DNA of 64,000 bases, from assembly GCF_024223415.1 (NCBI RefSeq), contig NZ_CP100500.1; one strand, written 5' to 3'. Below the pieces are notes generated by a model, which was given only the letters and a program-made list of their open reading frames with translations, was not told where the DNA came from and made no database searches. A program made the translations under genes and the position numbers. Below are positions 2,625 through 64,000 of the stretch, one piece after another (the stretch's first letter is position 1; every line of letters begins with the position of its first letter). The DNA comes from Escherichia coli. Its GTDB lineage: Bacteria > Pseudomonadota > Gammaproteobacteria > Enterobacterales > Enterobacteriaceae.

Positions 2625-3176
2625 ATGACTCAAAACTATGAACTGATTGTGAAAGGGATCCGCAATTTTGAGAATAAAGTTACGGTAACTTTAGCGTTAC
2701 GGGACAAAAAACGCTTTGACGGTGAAATTTTTGACCTGGACATCTCGCTGGACCGTGTTGAAGGTGCCGCGCTGGAGTTTTATGAGTCAGCAGCCAGAAG
2801 GAGCATCAGACAGGTCTTCCTGGATGTTGTTGCCGGGTTATGTGAAGGGGATGAGCAGTCGCCGGAAAAGCGCCCCGTAATTTTAGAGGCGCAGAATGTG
2901 TGGATAACCTACAAAGGAAAGCTACCGGGAAGAATTACTGGTTCTCTGAAGACGCCACCGACGGCATTGCGGTCAGAAAAAGATGATATTGAATCGCCCA
3001 TTGAAAAACTGGAGGGCAGCGTAGCTGATCTGAATAAAAAATTGTCGGTGCTGATCCCTTCTGAAGATGAAAAAAAACGCCGCGATGAGCAGTTTGCGGC
3101 GTTTTACGATTATTGCATTGAAGTTACTCGCAGGAATTTTGTGAAGATTTTTGAGGAGGGTAAATCTCTTCAGTAA
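2625..3176 (+). CDS. Hypothetical protein (moron inserted between holin and endolysin)
   Basis: 183-aa ORF starting 4 nt after the holin stop with SD GGGGAGAG; no family recognised; AT-richer than flanking lysis genes. Confidence 0.6.
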   Translation: MTQNYELIVKGIRNFENKVTVTLALRDKKRFDGEIFDLDISLDRVEGAALEFYESAARRSIRQVFLDVVAGLCEGDEQSPEKRPVILEAQNVWITYKGKLPGRITGSLKTPPTALRSEKDDIESPIEKLEGSVADLNKKLSVLIPSEDEKKRRDEQFAAFYDYCIEVTRRNFVKIFEEGKSLQ

Positions 3177-3384
3177 GCTTAATGGCGGACGCTGCAATTA
3201 ATTCAGGAAGGTCCGCAAGGTCATCTGTCAGTGGATATGATGAAAAATCGGCGGCAGTTCTGTTAAGAATCGCTTTAACTAATTCCTTTTCCTTCTCCGG
3301 CAACAAGTTGATTAGAGCTACGACTGCTTGCCTGAGTGCGATTAAATCAGCAAAAGTTTGTTTTGGTAGATTTGTGTAATCCAT
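3124..3384 (-). CDS. Hypothetical small acidic protein, convergent with and 3'-overlapping the previous ORF
   Basis: 86 aa from ATG at 3384 (MDYTNLPKQTF...) with SD GAGGTG 3 nt upstream; the six-frame ORF extends to 3507 but that part overlaps the endolysin start and lacks an RBS. Confidence 0.5.
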   Translation of the reverse strand: MDYTNLPKQTFADLIALRQAVVALINLLPEKEKELVKAILNRTAADFSSYPLTDDLADLPELIAASAIKLTEEIYPPQKSSQNSCE

Positions 3385-3497
3385 AGTCACCTCTGTGTTT
3401 ATCAGATTGACATCCTCCTCCCGCCAGTGCCCATCACTGGTGAGGTAAGATTTAACATATCCAGGGTTCAGAAACCGATAAATCCTGATAAATATCC

Positions 3498-4031
3498 ATG
3501 AGCGCAAAAATCAAATACGGCCTGTCAGCTGCTGTTCTGGCGCTGATTGCTGCAGGCGCGTCTGCTCCTCAAATACTTGACCAGTTTCTGGATGAAAAAG
3601 AGGGTAACCACACTACGGCATACCGCGATGGTTCCGGTATATGGACCATCTGTCGTGGTGCCACAATGGTGGATGGTAAGCCCGTCATACCGGGAATGAA
3701 GCTGTCGAAGGAAAAATGCGACCAGGTTAACGCTATTGAACGTGATAAGGCGCTGGCATGGGTGGAGCGCAATATTAAAGTACCACTGACCGAACCACAA
3801 AAAGCGGGTATAGCGTCATTCTGTCCCTATAACATTGGCCCCGGTAAGTGTTTCCCGTCGACGTTTTATAAGCGGCTTAATGCCGGTGATCGTAAAGGTG
3901 CCTGTGAGTCGATTCGCTGGTGGATTAAGGACGGTGGGCGTGATTGCCGCACACGTTCAAATAACTGCTACGGACAGGTTATTCGTCGTGACCAGGAAGC
4001 AGCACTTGTGTGCTGGGATATCGACAGATGA
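3498..4031 (+). CDS. R: SAR endolysin (phage lysozyme, R21-like)
   Basis: 177 aa; N-terminal signal-anchor LSAAVLALIAAGASAP followed by lysozyme-like motifs (EGNHTTAYRDGSGIWTICRG); paired with a pinholin. Confidence 0.9.
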   Translation: MSAKIKYGLSAAVLALIAAGASAPQILDQFLDEKEGNHTTAYRDGSGIWTICRGATMVDGKPVIPGMKLSKEKCDQVNAIERDKALAWVERNIKVPLTEPQKAGIASFCPYNIGPGKCFPSTFYKRLNAGDRKGACESIRWWIKDGGRDCRTRSNNCYGQVIRRDQEAALVCWDIDR

Positions 4032-4520: not shown

Positions 4521-4583
4521 CTGTTACGGCCAGGTGATTCGTCGTGACCAGGAAAGTGCATTAGCCTGTTGGGGGATAGATCA

Positions 4584-5051
4584 GTGAGCAGAGTCGCCGC
4601 GATTATTTATGCTCTGGTTATCTGCATCATCGTCTGCCTGTCGTGGGCGGTCAATCATTACCGTGATAACGCCATCGCCTACAAAGAACAGCGTGATAAA
4701 AAAGTCAGTGAGCTGAAGCAGGCGACCGCCACCATTACTGACATGCAGCAACGCCAGCGTGCTGCTGATGTACTCGATGCTAAATACACGAAGGAGTTGG
4801 CTGATGCGAAAGCTGAAAATGATGCTCTTCGGCGCAAGCTTGATAATGGTGGTCGGGTGCTCGTCAAAGGAAAATGCCCTGTGCCATCCTCAGCCGAAAC
4901 CTCCAGCGCCTCCGGCATGGGCAATGATGCCACCGTCGAACTCTCTCCAGTTGCTGGACGAAACGTTCTCGGTGTCCGGGACGGAATTATCCGCGACCAA
5001 ACAGCACTGAGAACGCTTCAGGAATACATCAGGACGCAATGCCTTCGATGA
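4584..5051 (+). CDS. Rz: Rz i-spanin
   Basis: GTG start, [40 protein letters not shown]... closely matches lambda Rz as recalled; N-terminal TM anchor. Confidence 0.85.
4804..5010 (+). CDS. Rz1: Rz1 o-spanin lipoprotein, embedded in the +1 frame of Rz
   Basis: [21 protein letters not shown]... with lipobox VVGC and proline-rich mature part; entirely inside Rz. Confidence 0.8.
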
Positions 5052-5546: not shown

Positions 5547-5741
5547 TTATTCATCATCTCTTTGGATTGATGTATATGCTCTCTTTTCTGACGTTAGTCT
5601 CCGACGGCAGGCTTCAATGACCCAGGCTGAGAAATTCCCGGACCCTTTTTGCTCAAGAGCGATGTTAATTTGTTCAATCATTTGGTTAGGAAAGCGGATG
5701 TTGCGGGTTGTTGTTCTGCGGGTTCTGTTCTTCGTTGACAT
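5547..5741 (-). CDS. YlcI/YnfO-family small protein (DUF3950, ribbon-helix-helix-like)
   Basis: 64 aa with motif NIRFP...NFSAWV..AC; paralogous to the ORF at 63486-63683; this family sits before the terminase genes in DLP12 and Qin. Confidence 0.7.
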   Translation of the reverse strand: MSTKNRTRRTTTRNIRFPNQMIEQINIALEQKGSGNFSAWVIEACRRRLTSEKRAYTSIQRDDE

Positions 5742-5899: not shown

Positions 5900-6060
5900 T
5901 ATCATTTTGCGGGTCCTTTCCGGCATGTGGACCCGTTACGGGGCGTCGACCTCGCGGTTTTTCGCTATTTATGAGATTTTTTGAGGGGGTGGTTGTTGTT
6001 TAATTGTTTGGTATATCTAATTGATAAGTAAGGTGAAAATAAAATAAATACAACAACCTT
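5900..6060 (+). other. cos site (cosN cohesive-end sequence at 5941-5952, flanked by cosQ and cosB regions)
   Basis: gttacg|GGGCGTCGACCT|cgcggtttttcgctatttatga matches the lambda cos sequence GGGCGGCGACCTCGCGGGTTTTCGCTATTTATGA with one mismatch in the 12-nt overhang. Confidence 0.75.
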
Positions 6061-6168
6061 ACGATGTGCTTTGATGTCATTAATGTGAAAAAATTAAATG
6101 ATATCAAATGGTTTTGTAAAAACACATGGTTGTTGTATCGCTTTTTATCGATGACTTATGGAGAGGAG

Positions 6169-6675
6169 ATGGCCTTTTTATTGAATAAAAGTGATATGGC
6201 CTCCTCCATCGGTATCTCTGTTCAGGCATTTGATAAATGGGGCGTTCCTCCTGTCGAGCGTCGGGGGAGGGAAGTTTTTTATGACGTTAAAACTGTACTG
6301 GAGATAGATCGCGAGCGGCGACAACACAATCATAGAACACCTGATGACGGGGGCGATCTGGAGGAAAGGCTGCTTCGGGCCAGAGCTGAACTGACAGAAG
6401 AACAGGCCGTAGCTCAAAAACTTAAAAATCAGGTAACCGAAGGTAAGCTCATCGATTCAGACTTCTGCGTTTTCGCCCTCAGCAAGCTGGCAATGGCGTT
6501 ATCCAGTACGCTTGATTCCATCCCTTTATCCATGCAACGACAGTTTCCTGATTTAACACCGCGCCATCTTGACCATCTGAAAACCCTTATTGCGAAGGGG
6601 GCAAATCAGTGTGCGCGGGCAGGGGATAAATTACCGGATTTACTCGATGAATATATCAGAGCAACAACTGAATAA
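6169..6675 (+). CDS. Nu1: Terminase small subunit (Nu1-like)
   Basis: N-terminal HTH region NKSDMASSIGISVQAFDKWGVPP aligns with lambda Nu1; exact start uncertain (6151, 6169 or 6196 all in frame). Confidence 0.8.
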   Translation: MAFLLNKSDMASSIGISVQAFDKWGVPPVERRGREVFYDVKTVLEIDRERRQHNHRTPDDGGDLEERLLRARAELTEEQAVAQKLKNQVTEGKLIDSDFCVFALSKLAMALSSTLDSIPLSMQRQFPDLTPRHLDHLKTLIAKGANQCARAGDKLPDLLDEYIRATTE

Positions 6676-8575
6676 TATGATGAGTGCTGTCACAACAGCA
6701 TTACAGCCCCTGATAAGGGCATTGCCGGTGACGGCAGTTGAATGGGCTGACCAGTATTATTATCTGCCTAAAGAATCCTCATACGGTGACGGCGAATGGA
6801 AAACGCTGCCGTTCCAGATCGCCATCATGAACAGTATGGGTAATGACCTGATCCGCACTGTTAATCTGATTAAATCTGCCCGTATTGGTTATACAAAGAT
6901 GTTGCTGGGGGTGGTCGGGTATTTTATTGAGCATAAATCCCGAAACAGTCTGCTTTTTCAGCCCACGGATTCTGCCGCTGAAGATTTTATGAAGTCTCAC
7001 GTGGAGACGACGATTAGGGACGTGCCATGCCTGAAAGACCTTTCCCCATGGCTGGGTCGTAAACATCGTGATAATACCCTCACGCTGAAACGCTTTTCAT
7101 CGGGCGTCGGTTTCTGGTGCCTGGGCGGCGCTGCCGCCAAAAACTACCGTGAAAAATCCGTGGACGTGGTCTGCTATGACGAACTCTCATCGTTTGAACC
7201 TGATGTTGAAAAAGAGGGCTCGCCAACCCTGCTGGGGGATAAGCGTATTGAGGGCTCTGTATGGCCAAAATCCATTCGCGGCTCGACGCCTAAAATCAAA
7301 GGCTCCTGCCAGATCGAAAAAGCCGCTAACGAGTCGGCACATTTCATGCGTTTTTATGTGCCCTGTCCGCACTGTGGGGAGGAGCAGTATCTGAAATTTG
7401 GTGATGATGCCTCGGCTTTCGGTCTTAAGTGGGAGAAGAATAAGCCAGAAAGTGTTTTCTACCTTTGTGAGCATCATGGCTGTGTGATCCATCAGTCTGA
7501 GCTTGACCAGAGTAACGGGCGGTGGATCTGTGAAAACACGGGGATGTGGACCCGTGACGGTCTGACGTTTTTCAGCGCCCGGGGTGATGAAATTCCGCCG
7601 CCGCGCTCCATCACTTTCCATATCTGGACGGCGTACAGTCCGTTCACCACCTGGGTACAGATAGTCTATGACTGGCTGGATGCACTGAAAGATCCCAACG
7701 GCCTGAAAACCTTTGTGAACACCACGCTGGGCGAGACCTGGGAAGAGGCCGTGGGCGAAAAACTCGATCACCAGGTACTGATGGATAAGGTTGTGCGTTA
7801 CACGGCGGCGGTGCCTGCCCGGGTGGTTTATCTGACGGCGGGCATTGACTCGCAGCGAAACCGTTTTGAGATGTATGTCTGGGGATGGGCTCCGGGAGAG
7901 GAAGCCTTTCTGGTGGATAAAATCATCATTATGGGACGTCCCGATGAGGAAGAGACGCTGTTACGTGTGGATGCGGCGATCAACAAAAAATACTGCCATG
8001 CAGACGGAACCGAAATGACCATTTCCCGTGTCTGCTGGGACATCGGGGGGATCGATGGCGAAATCGTTTATCAGAGGTCAAAAAAACACGGTGTTTTCCG
8101 GGTGCTGCCGGTAAAAGGCGCATCTGTCTATGGCAAGCCGGTGATCACCATGCCAAAAACCCGCAATCAGCGGGGCGTGTATCTGTGTGAAGTGGGGACG
8201 GACACCGCAAAAGAAATTCTCTATGCCCGTATGAAAGCCGCTCCCACGCCTGCGGATGAATCCACGTCGTATGCCATCCGTTTTCCTGATGATCCGGAGA
8301 TTTTTTCGCAGACAGAGGCGCAGCAACTGGTCGCGGAAGAGCTTGTGGAGAAGTGGGAAAAAGGAAAGATGCGTCTGCTGTGGGATAACAAAAAGCGGCG
8401 TAACGAAGCGCTGGACTGCCTGGTGTATGCCTACGCGGCATTACGTGTGTCCGTGCAACGCTGGCAGCTTGATCTGGCTGTACTGGCAAAATCCCGGGAA
8501 GAAGAGACGACCCGGCCAACCCTTAAAGAACTGGCAGCGAAGCTGTCCGGAGGAGTGAATGGTTACAGTCGCTGA
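6647..8575 (+). CDS. A: Terminase large subunit (gpA-like)
   Basis: 642 aa; MNISEQQLNN...TAVEWADQYYYLPKESSYGDGEWKTLPFQIAIMNSMG closely parallels lambda gpA. Confidence 0.95.
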   Translation: MNISEQQLNNMMSAVTTALQPLIRALPVTAVEWADQYYYLPKESSYGDGEWKTLPFQIAIMNSMGNDLIRTVNLIKSARIGYTKMLLGVVGYFIEHKSRNSLLFQPTDSAAEDFMKSHVETTIRDVPCLKDLSPWLGRKHRDNTLTLKRFSSGVGFWCLGGAAAKNYREKSVDVVCYDELSSFEPDVEKEGSPTLLGDKRIEGSVWPKSIRGSTPKIKGSCQIEKAANESAHFMRFYVPCPHCGEEQYLKFGDDASAFGLKWEKNKPESVFYLCEHHGCVIHQSELDQSNGRWICENTGMWTRDGLTFFSARGDEIPPPRSITFHIWTAYSPFTTWVQIVYDWLDALKDPNGLKTFVNTTLGETWEEAVGEKLDHQVLMDKVVRYTAAVPARVVYLTAGIDSQRNRFEMYVWGWAPGEEAFLVDKIIIMGRPDEEETLLRVDAAINKKYCHADGTEMTISRVCWDIGGIDGEIVYQRSKKHGVFRVLPVKGASVYGKPVITMPKTRNQRGVYLCEVGTDTAKEILYARMKAAPTPADESTSYAIRFPDDPEIFSQTEAQQLVAEELVEKWEKGKMRLLWDNKKRRNEALDCLVYAYAALRVSVQRWQLDLAVLAKSREEETTRPTLKELAAKLSGGVNGYSR

Positions 8576-59197: not shown

Positions 59198-60022
59198 TTA
59201 TCGCATTATGCCCATGAAGCCATGTACGCCCATATACACACCGACTAAGCCAATCAACAGACTGGAAAAATAGGGGGCGCGTTTAGCGAGAGTGTTAAAT
59301 CCGCTCCAGCGTTTTGCGACCTGCTGAACGCTGATTGCTGCGCCAACGCCTACGGTGACAAGCGTTAACGCCAGGCCAATGCTGAAACTGACGACCAGTG
59401 TTGCGCCCAGTGTCAGGGCTTTCAACTGAATGCAAATCAACAGCACGGTAATTGCTGCCGGACAGGGGATAAGACCACCTGTTAAGCCAAATAACAAAAT
59501 TTGCCAGTTGGTGACCTCTCTACCATCAAAGCGTCGTTTAATATCATTGGCATGGGCTCGTGCATGGGCATCCTGATACTCGCCATGTTCGTGATGGTGA
59601 TGATGTCCATGGTCGTGGTGATCTTCGTGATCGTGGTGATGATGTTCATGATCATACTCGTGCATATTCTCCAGCCAGTTGCGTTCGCCGCGCCAGGTAC
59701 GCCAGAACATCCAGAACGCGGTGCCAATAATGATCACTGCGGAAATCAGCTGGAGCCACGGTTCTGCTGATTGAGCAGTAAAGCGCTTGCTGATCACCAT
59801 CCCGCCAAAGGCAATTAACCAGACCACTGCGGTATGCGAAATAGTTGCTGCCAGTCCGAGCATCACCGCCTGTTTAATGGTGCCTTTGATGGCGATGATA
59901 AACGCCGCCATCATCGTTTTTGAGTGCCCTGGTTCCAGGCCATGAAGCGCACCAAGTAAGATGGCGCTGGGGATGAAGAACCAGGCGTTTCCTTGCTGAA
60001 GAAGAGTTGTAAATTCGGTCAT
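59198..60022 (-). CDS. rcnA: Nickel/cobalt efflux permease RcnA
   Basis: 274 aa with His-rich loop (HEYDHEHHHHDHEDHHDHGHHHHHEHGEYQDAH). Confidence 0.95.
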   Translation of the reverse strand: MTEFTTLLQQGNAWFFIPSAILLGALHGLEPGHSKTMMAAFIIAIKGTIKQAVMLGLAATISHTAVVWLIAFGGMVISKRFTAQSAEPWLQLISAVIIIGTAFWMFWRTWRGERNWLENMHEYDHEHHHHDHEDHHDHGHHHHHEHGEYQDAHARAHANDIKRRFDGREVTNWQILLFGLTGGLIPCPAAITVLLICIQLKALTLGATLVVSFSIGLALTLVTVGVGAAISVQQVAKRWSGFNTLAKRAPYFSSLLIGLVGVYMGVHGFMGIMR

Positions 60023-60143
60023 GATAATAATTCTTAGTATTAATTCGGCAATCTGATTCTACTCCCCCCCCAGTACCTGATACTACCCCCCAGTAGATTA
60101 ATAGTGCTATGATTTTTCATATTCTTGTTAACCAGGTGTTGCC

Positions 60144-60416
60144 ATGTCTCATACAATCCGTGATAAACAGAAACTGAAAGCGCGTGCCAGTAAGATTCAG
60201 GGCCAGGTCGTGGCGCTCAAGAAAATGCTCGACGAGCCGCACGAATGCGCTGCAGTTTTACAACAGATTGCTGCTATCCGTGGCGCGGTAAACGGTCTGA
60301 TGCGGGAAGTGATTAAAGGTCATCTGACGGAACACATCGTTCACCAGGGGGATGAGCTAAAACGTGAAGAAGATCTGGATGTCGTTCTGAAGGTGCTGGA
60401 TTCATATATCAAATAA
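60144..60416 (+). CDS. rcnR: Metal-responsive repressor RcnR (CsoR/RcnR family)
   Basis: 90 aa; divergent from rcnA. Confidence 0.95.
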
Positions 60417-60505
60417 TTTATTAACGCGATTGTAAAACTGCCGTTTTTCCTCGTTTACAACGCGTGCGCTGGACATTACCATCCTCCTCTGCGATTTATC
60501 ATCGC

Positions 60506-60557
60506 AACCAAACGACTCGGGGTGCCCTTCTGCGTGAAGGCTGAGAAATACCCGTAT
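60506..60557 (+). promoter_or_regulatory. thiM TPP riboswitch aptamer, 5' portion only, truncated by insertion
   Basis: AACCAAACGACTCGGGGTGCCCTTCTGCGTGAAGGCTGAGAAATACCCGTAT matches the E. coli thiM leader as recalled, then diverges (expected CACCTGATCTGG..., found TTTCTCATTTAG...). Confidence 0.75.
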
Positions 60558-60745
60558 TTTCTCATTTAGTGTTTTTTGTGGTTCGGGGTTGTTCGTGGTT
60601 GTTTGTGTATGTGTTTGATATATATTGAATTATTGTGTTTTCTTGTTTGTTGTTGTTCGTCGTTGTTCGTAGAGCTTCAACAAAATGTGTGGTCAGTTGT
60701 GTGGTCAGTTTTTTGAGGCTGGAGGACTGAAAAGAGGATCTGATA

Positions 60746-61969
60746 GTGGGAAAAGCACTAAACAAACTGAGCGATTCGACGTTAAAAAAATTGGCGTCTG
60801 TCCAAGCAGAAAAAGAGCGTTTTTACTCCGACGGGGGCGGGCTGGAGATTAAACACTCAAAGGGCGGCAAATTAACCTGGTATTTCCGGTACCGAACGGG
60901 AGGCCGTGAGGTTGCCGCAGAGCGGTTAAAGCTGGGGGCTTACCCTGAATTGTCGCTGAAAGCTGCAAGGGAAAAACGCGCACAGTGCCGGGCATGGCTG
61001 GCTGAGGGTAAAAACCCCCGTTATGAGTTGTGCGCCACAGTACAGGAAGCGCTAAAACCCGTTACGGTGAAGGAGGCGATTAACTACTGGCTGGATGAAT
61101 ATGCGAAGGATAACCGCAAAGACTACATAAAGCTGGTGCAACGTATGGATAAGCACATCATTTGCCATATAGGGGCAATTCCCCTTGATAAGTGTGATAC
61201 AAGGCAGTGGATCGCATGTTTTGACCGTGTACGAAAAAAAGCACCAGTAGCAGCAGGGCACGTCATGCAAACCTGCAAACAGGCGCTAAAGTTCTGCCGC
61301 AGGAGACGCTACGCGTTCAGTAATGCCCTGGACGATTTGATCGTCAGCGATGTGGGTAAGAGAGCAGAAATTCGCGAGAGGGTGCACAGCAACAGCGAAT
61401 TAAAGGAAATTTTACGCGCTATTGATGGTGATGTGTTCGCGCCTTACTACAGCGCGTTAATGCGCTTGCTGATTGTGTTCGGGTGCAGAACGGCAGAGGT
61501 CAGACTTTCAGAGATCAAAGAATGGGATCTGAAAGAAATGTTGTGGACAGTGCCAAAAGAGCATAGCAAAACGAAGGTAACGATATTCAGGCCAATCCCC
61601 GATGGCATTTTGCCGTTCATTCAGAAGCTGGTGGAGCAGAACCGGCATACAGGGTTATTACTCGGAGAACTGAAAAAAGATACCACGGTAGCGCAATATG
61701 GGCGAAATGCGCATAAGCGGCTTAACCAGGAACACTGGACGCTGCATGACTTTCGCCACACGTTTACAACGATGCTGAACGATTTAGGTGTCGATCCGCA
61801 TATCGTGGAGCACATCACAGCGCATCAGATGCCCGGTCAGCAAAAAACCTATAACCATTCACGCTATTTACAGGCGAAGCGAGACGCTCTGAATCTGTGG
61901 GTTGAGCGCCTCGATGTGCTGGCTGGAAATCATGAAAATATTGTCATATTAAGGGCTGAAAATGAATAA
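60746..61969 (+). CDS. int: Tyrosine recombinase, P4/CP4-57-type integrase
   Basis: 407 aa; C-terminal catalytic motifs (HDFRHTF...HITAH...Y); GTG start. Confidence 0.9.
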   Translation: MGKALNKLSDSTLKKLASVQAEKERFYSDGGGLEIKHSKGGKLTWYFRYRTGGREVAAERLKLGAYPELSLKAAREKRAQCRAWLAEGKNPRYELCATVQEALKPVTVKEAINYWLDEYAKDNRKDYIKLVQRMDKHIICHIGAIPLDKCDTRQWIACFDRVRKKAPVAAGHVMQTCKQALKFCRRRRYAFSNALDDLIVSDVGKRAEIRERVHSNSELKEILRAIDGDVFAPYYSALMRLLIVFGCRTAEVRLSEIKEWDLKEMLWTVPKEHSKTKVTIFRPIPDGILPFIQKLVEQNRHTGLLLGELKKDTTVAQYGRNAHKRLNQEHWTLHDFRHTFTTMLNDLGVDPHIVEHITAHQMPGQQKTYNHSRYLQAKRDALNLWVERLDVLAGNHENIVILRAENE

Positions 61970-62747
61970 TCTGGGCCGTGTATATCATACGCTGCCAATG
62001 GCAGCTAAAAAAATGGGATGTACTGTAGAGGATATTCTACATTTTGGTGCAACTAACCGACTTGAAATATGTGCGTATATTGATGATATTGAACAGAGAA
62101 AAGATTATTGCACTTTTAATGTGTTTTTTGATAATGAAGATAGCGAGAATAGTTTTTCTAAAACTATAAATAAATATAATTCCATATTTACTGACATGTA
62201 TGAAATATCATTGTTTAATTATAATGATGAGTTTTGTGTTGATGATGAGCGTATGGTTATTGAAGGTTTGTATGCTAATCATATGAAAGGCTTTTTTGCA
62301 ATACCATCTGAATTTCTTGTCGAAGTTGAATTGTCAAGTGCCTGTGAAATCATAAATCTATCGCCTCGTTATTTATATACACCGAAAGGTTATGGTGATT
62401 ATATTCGGTTGGATAGTATAGAAGGTCTTTCTATTCCAGAAAACAGGCTCGTGATATTCGATAGTGAGATATCGGGTTTTAATTATCAAAAGAAACCTAA
62501 ATATGCCGGAGGTGAAAGAGAATCACCTAAAACCAGAGCTAAAAAAGCCGAGATAATACCTGCTCTCATAAAACTGATCCCTGAGATGCAAGATGTGGAT
62601 TTGGAGGATACACCCGTATCCAAAATTGCAGAAATGATAGAGGTTATTGCTGCACAAAGAGGGGTTGAGTTACCTAGCACTCACAGGCAGACATGGCAGA
62701 AATATTTAGGGCGTGATGCTGGTGACGTTCCAAAACGTCAAAAGTGA
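61962..62747 (+). CDS. Hypothetical protein, low GC, start overlaps the integrase stop
   Basis: 261-aa ORF overlapping the int stop (ATGAATAA); AT-rich codon usage; no family recognised. Confidence 0.6.
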   Translation: MNNLGRVYHTLPMAAKKMGCTVEDILHFGATNRLEICAYIDDIEQRKDYCTFNVFFDNEDSENSFSKTINKYNSIFTDMYEISLFNYNDEFCVDDERMVIEGLYANHMKGFFAIPSEFLVEVELSSACEIINLSPRYLYTPKGYGDYIRLDSIEGLSIPENRLVIFDSEISGFNYQKKPKYAGGERESPKTRAKKAEIIPALIKLIPEMQDVDLEDTPVSKIAEMIEVIAAQRGVELPSTHRQTWQKYLGRDAGDVPKRQK

Positions 62748-62837
62748 TATCACGTACAGATAGTGTGATATCACACAAACGGCATTTTACCACCGCCTAG
62801 AATCGTCCTCGTTCGGCAACGTTCGAGGACGTTTTTT

Positions 62838-63062
62838 ATGAATCAAAATACACAATTTCAATCACTATCAGATCGCGTAATCCGTGAGGATGAATGCCGT
62901 AAGTTAACAGGAGTGTGCCGCACTACACGCTACGAACTGGAGAAAAAAGGGAGCTTTCCGTCTCGCCGTAATCTTGGTGGGCGTTCTGTAGGTTGGCTGC
63001 TGTCCGAGGTTATGGAATGGGTTAAAAGCCGGGATCGCATTAATTCAGGCAAGGCAGCGTAA
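62838..63062 (+). CDS. alpA: AlpA-family phage transcriptional regulator
   Basis: 74 aa; HTH region RKLTGVCRTTRYELEKKGSFPSRRNLGGRSVGWLLSEVMEWV typical of AlpA. Confidence 0.85.
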   Translation: MNQNTQFQSLSDRVIREDECRKLTGVCRTTRYELEKKGSFPSRRNLGGRSVGWLLSEVMEWVKSRDRINSGKAA

Positions 63063-63200
63063 AGGGGAGTATATGACACATAAAACAAAGGCGACCGGGG
63101 GCGGTCGCCAATGGGAAAACACTAAACATAAGCCCGGCCATCATAGCGATTTGCTGGCTGGTGGGCAATGTGTCCAGTGTGGTGGCTTGCTGGTGGATTG

Positions 63201-63428
63201 TCAGCCAGGCGGTCGGTTTTTGCCGGATTTAAGCCGCCGTGGGTATTTATCGACAAAATCTTCAAGGGCAAATTTTTCTGGTGGCACTAAGCGCGGCGCT
63301 GGTGGTGGTATTTTTGTTCTGGTTAGTTCTTCCTCAAGTCTGGCGCAGGCTTCTGACTGCCTTTGCCGGATGATTTCATCATCTTGCGTTTGCGTGTCTT
63401 GTATTGGTGATAGTGTGTTGTTGGTCAT
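63201..63428 (-). CDS. Hypothetical protein
   Basis: 75-aa ORF downstream of the RHH-like gene on the same strand. Confidence 0.45.
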   Translation of the reverse strand: MTNNTLSPIQDTQTQDDEIIRQRQSEACARLEEELTRTKIPPPAPRLVPPEKFALEDFVDKYPRRLKSGKNRPPG

Positions 63429-63485
63429 GATACTGCCCTGTAAAGCAATGCGCCGTAGTACCTCACACCACGGCGCTGATAGTGA

Positions 63486-63683
63486 TTATTCTGATTCTTT
63501 GGCCTTGCGGCGCTGTTCATATTTTAATTTGCGTCCACAGGCATCTAAGACCCATGCGGAAAAATTAGCACTAGGATTAGTTAATTTTTCTTGTTCAACG
63601 CTGGCATCAATCCCATCTATAAGCTCATGTGGGAATCGAATATTTTTCTTTGCTGATTTGTTGTTTGTGTTACCACTAGACAT
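63486..63683 (-). CDS. YlcI/YnfO-family ribbon-helix-helix-like small protein, candidate repressor
   Basis: 65 aa with NIRFP...NFSAWV..AC motif; SD GAGGTG; divergent from an operator-containing promoter. Confidence 0.7.
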   Translation of the reverse strand: MSSGNTNNKSAKKNIRFPHELIDGIDASVEQEKLTNPSANFSAWVLDACGRKLKYEQRRKAKESE

Positions 63684-63751
63684 TGATGCACCTCACTTAA
63701 ATGGACTTTATGGGCGCACACAATACAGCAAAAAAAGTGAGAAGTTAAGTA

Positions 63752-63790
63752 TTGACATGTGCGCACACATGATTCTAATCTGTGCGCACA
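63752..63790 (+). promoter_or_regulatory. Sigma-70-type promoter (TTGACA, 16 nt, TCTAAT) overlapped by two TGTGCGCACA palindromic operators
   Basis: -35 at 63752-63757, -10 at 63774-63779; perfect 10-bp palindromes at 63758-63767 and 63781-63790; related half-sites at ~63711-63720 and 63911-63920. Confidence 0.55.
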
Positions 63791-63883
63791 GTTTGGGTTG
63801 CATTGCTCAAATTAAGCAACGCCCCGCAGTGCTCGCAACACATGCAGGGCGTCTAACCAAACCGTTAATAGGAGTAACGATTA

Positions 63884-64000
63884 TGGCTGGAACACAGCAT
63901 ACCCCACGCCTTGCGCACACACAAACCGCCTTTGTGTGGCGTTTTCTGGCACTGAGTGCCGGAGAATCTCAAATTATCCACGTAACCGCCTGGACGGAAC
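63884..64000 (+). CDS. Hypothetical protein, 5' end only (runs off the window)
   Basis: ATG with SD AGGAG downstream of the operator-controlled promoter. Confidence 0.5.

Follow-up and report, generated by a model that had tools for sequence, protein, structure and literature searches.

The control region at the right end of the DNA studied here, a stretch of 64,000 nucleotides from Escherichia coli that we call the window, is probably an immunity-type switch of a PICI or cf-PICI satellite (we put this at roughly three chances in four). The small RHH-like protein YlcI would act on three operators, regulating its own gene and repressing the operon for replication and packaging. The first-pass annotation of this DNA had described a repressor-operator switch over the island's cargo, lying outside the window. 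The switch is supported by our analysis, whereas the target is the satellite's own set of icd-like, primase, SSB, capsid and terminase genes. This touches on a question that is still open in satellite biology. Gram-negative PICIs and cf-PICIs are common and move virulence and defence genes, and the field model is that Gram-negative PICIs rely on the activator AlpA, without a repressor; the founding paper leaves the repressor question open. A global repressor in Gram-negative PICIs has been called 'unclear', and AlpA described as the activator (PMC6092414). An RHH repressor/operator switch is of a known kind, and a repressor for this type of satellite would be new.

Judged by its genes, the end of the window is probably the left arm (int, alpA, ylcI and icd-like) of an E. 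coli PICI/cf-PICI satellite. The flanking chromosome is the yehA-rcnA-rcnB-rcnR region of E. coli (99.5% identity). Next to rcnR, the left end of the satellite carries a tyrosine integrase gene (60746-61969, plus strand), 98% identical to the cf-PICI-type integrase of the related locus L001. It is followed by a 261-aa ORF (61962-62747) and by an alpA/vis-like gene (62838-63062, plus strand; phrog_2790, E=1e-17). The int-alpA RNA RF02996 of Rfam has no match in the window, where the 261-aa ORF lies between int and alpA instead; it was found near int/alpA in four relatives (L010, 9042-9108; L022, 4331-4399; L062, 7286-7355; L065, 7856-7923). On the opposite strand, ylcI (63486-63683) is followed by a 75-aa ORF (63201-63428, minus strand), which had no family match in profile searches and is replaced in L001 by a different small ORF. 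The ylcI unit ends in a strong intrinsic-terminator-like hairpin (63090-63109, minus strand; 8-bp stem with 7 GC pairs, then a T run), situated just past the alpA stop codon, and a weak plus-strand terminator-like hairpin was detected at 63196-63214. In each of the 45 loci having an AlpA-like gene, alpA is transcribed in the same direction as the icd operon and converges with ylcI. AlpA of Pseudomonas is a processive antiterminator (PMC9371919). One may speculate that AlpA-driven and possibly terminator-resistant transcription runs antisense through ylcI, silencing the repressor gene, and enters the replication operon.

The rightward operon starts at the ATG (63883) of an icd-like ORF that is cut by the window end (63883-64000, plus strand). 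The 39-aa fragment matches NF033153 (phage_ICD_like) with E=1.5e-5, full-length relatives score 63-70 bits, and the RefSeq annotation agrees. PICIs and cf-PICIs were recognized by int followed by alpA, a replication module, capsid, portal and terminase genes in the case of cf-PICIs, and a size of about 10-15 kb; since the window ends in icd, we looked at relatives for the rest. In E. coli JNE170426 and O157:H7, the relatives that occupy the same insertion site are complete and about 15 kb long, encoding in order Int, AlpA, YlcI, an Icd-like protein, DUF4222, a RepA helicase or a primase, SSB, PerC, capsid, protease, portal, connectors, HNH, TerS and TerL, which is the gene order of capsid-forming PICIs. 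More generally, icd-like, small ORFs, primase/helicase and SSB genes lie downstream of the promoter in relatives, with head and terminase genes in many of them. The switch would thus govern the satellite's own replication and packaging genes and not accessory cargo.

Three sites occupy the intergenic region. The 64 kb window contains two exact copies of the palindrome TGTGCGCACA, one at 63758-63767 and one at 63781-63790, with no third, and two or more copies were obtained in 0 of 100 dinucleotide shuffles (mean 0.15). The two perfect 10-bp palindromes noted before are therefore both in place and non-random. At one mismatch, the sole additional match in the window is TGGGCGCACA (63711-63720), and this copy and both copies of TGTGCGCACA are confined to 80 bp. 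We named these putative operators O1 (ATGGGCGCACAC, 63710-63721, around the TGGGCGCACA core), O2 (63757-63768, around the first TGTGCGCACA) and O3 (CTGTGCGCACAG, 63780-63791, core 63781-63790). Two further related sites had been reported beside the palindromes. One of them is the core of O1, with its one mismatch and conserved position; the other, CTTGCGCACA at 63910-63919, has two mismatches, lies inside the icd-like ORF and is not conserved. As an operator or an RNA target we rejected it, since L001 has a degenerate form of it (TGTACACACA) and none of the other relatives sharing this operator has it; it is most likely a chance occurrence.

The sites are closely fitted to two divergent promoters. 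The rightward promoter (63752-63781, plus strand) has a perfect -35, TTGACA (63752-63757), and an imperfect -10, either TCTAAT (63774-63779) with a 16-nt spacer or TAATCT (63776-63781) with an 18-nt spacer; across loci, TTGAC(A/G) is conserved together with TAnnnT at 17-18 nt. O2 sits within the spacer, directly 3' of the -35 in every locus, and O3 overlaps the -10 and +1. For the leftward ylcI promoter (63720-63748, minus strand), which we infer from the sequence and its relatives, the elements would be -35 TTAACT (63748-63743), a 17-nt spacer and -10 TATTGT (63725-63720). In relatives this -10 reads TATAGT, TATGGT or TATTGT and directly abuts site 1, as it abuts O1 here, an arrangement that mirrors the fusion of the rightward -10 to site 3. 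A consensus promoter scanner called neither promoter, the ylcI -10 being below threshold, and the assignments therefore rest on conservation. What had been called a good sigma-70 promoter thus holds for its perfect -35 and conserved position and less so for its imperfect -10, uncalled by the scanner.

To compare relatives, we gathered loci with a YlcI profile, 31 from contigs of one genome per species and 52 from IMG/VR. Their hosts belong to Escherichia, Klebsiella, Serratia, Rahnella, Pectobacterium, Pantoea and Brenneria as well as Xenorhabdus, Proteus, Arsenophonus, Providencia, Gilliamella and Orbus. We also searched IMG/VR with the conserved leader hairpin described below instead of the protein, and obtained 61 satellite-sized loci (L086-L146). 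Altogether, three sites are found at fixed positions in about 140 related loci of Enterobacterales. In nearly every locus, site 1 lies about 47 bp upstream of site 2 (45-47 bp for the O1 region in nearly all relatives, which carry a cognate site there) and abuts the TAT(A/G/T)GT of the ylcI promoter, site 2 is directly 3' of the TTGAC(A/G) -35, and site 3 lies about 23 bp beyond, a spacing kept in most YlcI loci. The sequence of the sites varies by element, for example TGTGCGCACA, GTGTATATGCAC, GTGTTTAAACAC, GTGGGTGCACAC, GTGTACCCCCAC, GTGTGGCCGCAC or TGTGCGGACA, within the general form (G)TG-N6-CA(C). Between the window and two Rahnella loci (L004 and L005), the sites are identical while the intervening spacers have diverged. 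Chance palindromes absent from homologous elements had been named as the outcome that would speak against a switch; instead, the sites are kept in position in these loci. We rejected Int arm sites and a replication origin as explanations: elements with unrelated integrases have these sites in common, and the sites coincide with promoter elements.

Two close relatives differ in the number of sites. L048, whose YlcI is 97% identical to that of the window, has lost the 23 bp from O2 to O3, leaving one site and no -10; in L035, whose YlcI is 100% identical, a further tandem copy brings the sites to three, at +6, +29 and +52. The loci found with the leader hairpin also extended the picture beyond YlcI of the window type. 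A small RHH-like gene occupies the divergent slot in 59 of the 61: 9 are window-type YlcI, 38 form a second branch that still matches NF041551, and 12 represent a third family, weakly similar to RHH_1 over the full length. Each family has repeated sites of its own, for example GTTGACATTGTCAAC, GTGTCTGACAC, GGTACCTACC and CATGGTAATTACC. The presence of at least three RHH-like families in one slot suggests that repressor/operator modules are exchanged as cassettes before a constant operon.

The protein itself was then examined. The leftward gene had been assigned to an RHH/YnfO family, and the YlcI/YnfO membership of its 65-aa product is above the curated cutoff (NF041551, 59 bits, cutoff 30); it also matches PF13132 (DUF3950) with E=1.6e-6, as do all 41 aligned homologues, and phrog_949 with E=1.4e-27. 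The RHH part comes from structure prediction. The AlphaFold (AF2) monomer is extended to residue 18 with helices at 19-35 and 41-63, and together with the motif alignment given below it reproduces the beta-alpha-alpha layout of the RHH unit of about 45 residues, in which a strand alternating between polar and hydrophobic residues precedes two helices. A tandem-fusion AF2 model mimicking the dimer had as best matches the single-chain RHH proteins TraY and single-chain Arc; pLDDT was moderate (68-72), and DSSP assigned zero beta-strand in either model. Foldseek with the monomer model gave no meaningful matches, and sequence and profile searches of the PDB with YlcI reached no solved RHH protein. 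Among Pfam, PDB and hhalign comparisons, none gave a significant sequence-profile match to any RHH family, the Pfam hits being all sub-threshold (HicB_lk_antitox best at 2.3e-3, Arc 0.011, NikA-like 0.029). Arc contacts bases through Q9, N11 and R13. The hhalign comparison with Arc (probability 5%) aligns K12/N14/R16 with these three residues, and the conserved YlcI motif K-x-I-R-F-P-H-E-L-I-x-x-I-D aligns with N-L-R-W-P-R-E-V-L-D of Arc. Positions 12 and 14 are variable and covary with the operator, and R16 is invariant across homologues, which fits the base-contact register of Arc. Overall, the YlcI/YnfO protein resembles RHH proteins in its predicted fold.

The weak similarity to HicB antitoxins is in line with another explanation, in which YlcI binds the sites but mainly restrains a potentially toxic Icd-like inhibitor of cell division, as an antitoxin or autoregulator. 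YlcI would then adjust expression finely without being the master repressor of the satellite life cycle, and AlpA alone would decide induction. The first controlled gene is indeed icd-like, and AlpA is necessary and sufficient for induction of EcCICFT073 and necessary for that of EcCIEDL933, two elements whose induction and packaging depend on a helper phage. However, the same promoter heads primase/helicase and packaging genes in relatives, the two genes are divergent and not co-transcribed like toxin-antitoxin pairs, and the many specificity types resemble immunity systems. We therefore regard this explanation as unlikely, although it is the one among the alternatives that survives best.

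We wanted to see which protein reads the sites, and for this we compared operator divergence with protein divergence. The distance between operators correlated with that between YlcI residues 11, 12 and 14 (Mantel r=0.51, p<=0.0002; partial r of 0.51 when the rest of the protein was controlled), against r=0.08 for helix residues 19-56. Position by position, the signal came from residues 5, 12, 6, 14, 11 and 4, strongest at 5 and 12, with all helix positions at or below 0.13. After redundant loci had been collapsed, r was 0.455 for the beta-strand and 0.003 for the helices. In pairwise tests, loci with the same residues 11/12/14 and helices diverged by at least 20% had operators differing at 0.94 of the 8 inner positions, while those with near-identical helices and different beta-strands differed at 2.72 of 8; in these and in the Mantel tests, phylogenetic non-independence is only partly removed. 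The second branch, which has the same three-site layout, shows 11 beta-strand types paired one-to-one with 11 GTG-N5-CAC operators, and this mapping is an independent replicate of the covariation. The residue-base code is not clean: AKKN, AKKY and TKKG all occur with TGTGCGCACA, and ATKG occurs with two operators. Because the covariation is confined to one end of a 65-residue protein, plain linkage cannot explain it. Recognition of DNA by the N-terminal arm and beta-strand is thus indirectly indicated through the covariation of the operator with residues 4-6 and 11-14 only. The palindromes are most likely conserved operators bound by the neighbouring YlcI/YnfO protein; the RHH-like neighbour had been proposed as the binder, and both this covariation and the predicted RHH fold of the dimer mimic argue for it.

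The same data bear on whether another regulator (AlpA, or a protein of the island, the helper phage or the host) binds the sites, with YlcI merely linked to them. AlpA is known to activate the genes of Gram-negative PICIs and the sites overlap a promoter that needs activation on induction, but operator type shows no correlation with AlpA (r=0.076), L007, L066 and L067 combine one and the same AlpA with three operator types, and the TGTGCGCACA group includes unrelated Int, AlpA and Icd proteins. AlpA was rejected as the binder for the first two of these reasons. Moreover, only the N-terminal arm and beta-strand of YlcI covary and the helices do not, for which linkage is insufficient, and if a host factor were the binder, dozens of site variants would not be required in one host clade. 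This possibility is accordingly quite improbable, about half as probable as the previous one.

In the switch that we favour, YlcI dimers would bind the three operators of 10-12 bp. O1 overlaps the -10/+1 of the leftward promoter, and its occupancy would lead to negative autoregulation of ylcI. O2 takes up the rightward spacer and O3 lies over the -10/+1 of the same promoter; when both are occupied, RNA polymerase would be excluded from the promoter of the icd-like, primase-helicase, SSB and (in cf-PICIs) capsid-terminase genes, leaving the integrated satellite silent. Specificity would be set by the N-terminal arm together with positions 12 and 14 of the beta-strand, by analogy with Gln9 and Asn11 of Arc, and the invariant Arg16 (Arg13 in Arc) would read the conserved outer TG/CA. 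Different satellites would carry different protein/operator pairs, like immunity groups, so that co-resident elements would not cross-repress. In two genomes, Serratia sp. Ag1 (L003 and L015) and Xenorhabdus kozodoii (L019 and L022), two elements are present with different YlcI beta-strands and operator types, and this is consistent with orthogonal immunity. We infer the binding, the repression, the transcription start sites and the lifting of repression by a helper phage, via AlpA or an anti-repressor. A broader and tentative proposal, which we find somewhat short of even odds, is that YlcI/YnfO and its sister RHH families supply the master repressors so far missing from Gram-negative PICIs and cf-PICIs, with dozens of orthogonal immunity types.

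The rightward transcript would begin with a structured 5' leader (63790-63879, plus strand; MFE -36.5 kcal/mol, z=-2.4). It consists of hairpin 1 (63790-63813), hairpin 2 (63819-63852), a single-stranded CTAACCAAAC and hairpin 3 (63863-63879), which holds the Shine-Dalgarno AGGAG in its loop. RNAalifold on 38 sequences (alignment A2) found compensatory changes at 9 of 15 consensus pairs; the Shine-Dalgarno hairpin occurs as CGTTA/TAACG, CGTAA/TTACG, TGTTA/TAACA and CATTA/TAATG, and the linker CTAACCACAAC is nearly invariant. The leader is common to satellites with different repressor families, and a 100% match (query 132-176) is present in other E. coli islands. Neither the leader nor the sites matched Rfam at E<=1 in the window part 60000-64000 or in 14 relatives, where the Rfam matches were int-alpA RNA and tRNA only, away from the leader. 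This conserved RNA could be a further layer of control. Within the icd-like ORF, 35 nt from its start, a terminator-like hairpin (63918-63938, plus strand) is made of CACACAAACCGCCTTTGTGTG followed by GCGTTTTCTG. We rejected it as a conserved attenuator, because it is present in the window/L001 subgroup only and conserved codons for W-R-F-L account for the T run; in that subgroup it could act as an attenuator.

Could the repeats act as RNA, as a 5' stem or an antisense target like seqA/seqC of P4 or the a/b elements of P1 c4? O3 lies at or after +1, and in many loci leader hairpin 1 takes in the 3' half of O3. In the window, the leader start (63781-63797, O3 plus GTTTGGG) is 76% complementary over 17 nt to 63903-63919, codons 7-12 of the icd-like gene. 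P4-like satellites and some PICIs use RNA immunity, the immunity RNAs of PICIs sitting in a 'dynamic zone' between integration and replication genes (PMC10111431). On the other hand, O1 and O2 are outside the rightward transcript, the complementarity is not kept in relatives, and the covariance models of C4 (RF01695) and IsrK gave nothing at E<=1 in the window part 60000-64000 and nothing at gathering score in 14 relatives. As the variation of the sites is also explained by protein-DNA covariation, we consider an RNA role for the repeats very improbable. Finally, a functionless chance cluster or a recent local duplication is practically untenable: short GC-rich palindromes can arise by slippage, and L035 and L048 display duplication or deletion between direct copies, but no shuffle reached two copies, the sites are kept while the spacer diverges between the window and Rahnella, and about 140 loci repeat this geometry with sites of other sequence, so that the comparative data refute it.

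In the immI region of P22, the RHH repressors Mnt and Arc act at the divergent promoters Pmnt and Pant. The YlcI switch would be similar in having a small RHH repressor gene divergent from the repressed operon, operators over -10/+1, autoregulation and beta-strand recognition residues equivalent to Gln9, Asn11 and Arg13 of Arc, the single-chain form of which was matched by the dimer mimic. It would differ in that YlcI belongs to DUF3950, without a significant Arc match, that a satellite replication/packaging operon is controlled, that in P22 a tetramer binds a single operator of 21 bp whereas three sites of 10-12 bp are present here, with spacings of 47 and 23 bp, and that a second Arc-like repressor is absent from the satellite operon. 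With the Stl/Rpr master repressors of Gram-positive PICIs (SaPIs), YlcI shares the slot between the int and replication modules, divergent from the replication operon (PMC6092414), and the presumed silencing of the island until the helper phage acts. Stl repressors, however, are large HTH proteins removed by specific phage proteins, while YlcI is a 65-aa RHH-like protein with no Stl-type (cI-like) HTH in Pfam searches or the AF2 monomer; Gram-positive PICIs use Stl, and the Gram-negative ones have been described as using the activator AlpA instead. Other RHH autoregulators (CopG, omega, ParG, the HicB C-terminal domain) are also small and act on short repeats over their own promoter, and the sub-threshold HicB_lk_antitox, Arc and NikA-like hits, with RHH_1 for the sister family, point the same way. 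Here, in contrast, the setting is neither plasmid copy control nor a toxin-antitoxin operon, and the gene is divergent from its target. A likeness to P1 immI (c4 RNA-icd-ant) and P4 CI is seen in the icd-like ORF that comes first downstream of a regulated promoter and a structured leader, and in the position in the 'dynamic zone' of PICIs. The differences are that C4 or IsrK RNA was undetected here, that specificity would lie in a protein/operator pair and that the leader is a different, uncurated RNA. One relative, L052, carries an Ant/Bro-type anti-repressor gene (3023-3862, minus strand) after the icd-like gene, giving an icd-ant order under RHH-type operators.

In the literature that could be searched, we found no functional study of YlcI, YnfO or DUF3950 and no link to regulation or satellites. 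If the switch is confirmed, DUF3950 would gain a function, the silencing and induction of these satellites would become directly testable, and the coexistence of several satellites in one cell without cross-talk would be explained. Engineering would also gain a set of small repressor/operator pairs that are orthogonal and have a specificity region that can be read.

The window contains a second YlcI/YnfO paralogue of 64 aa (MSTKNRTRRTTTRNIRFPNQ..., 5547-5741, minus strand) in a lambdoid prophage. It lies between lysis genes (lysozyme, 3498-4031; Rz-like, 4569-5051) and terminase genes (6064-6675 and 6590-8575), and a lambda-like cos sequence (GGGGCGTCGACCTCGCGGTTTTTCGCTATTTATGAG) follows closely on its right, near 5940-5975. 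The three-site GTG-N6-CAC layout is absent upstream of it, and this paralogue may have a different role. As for the satellite, of 5426 complete E. coli genomes 1302 contained a match to its alpA-ylcI-icd region, and 68 of these carry the exact control region.
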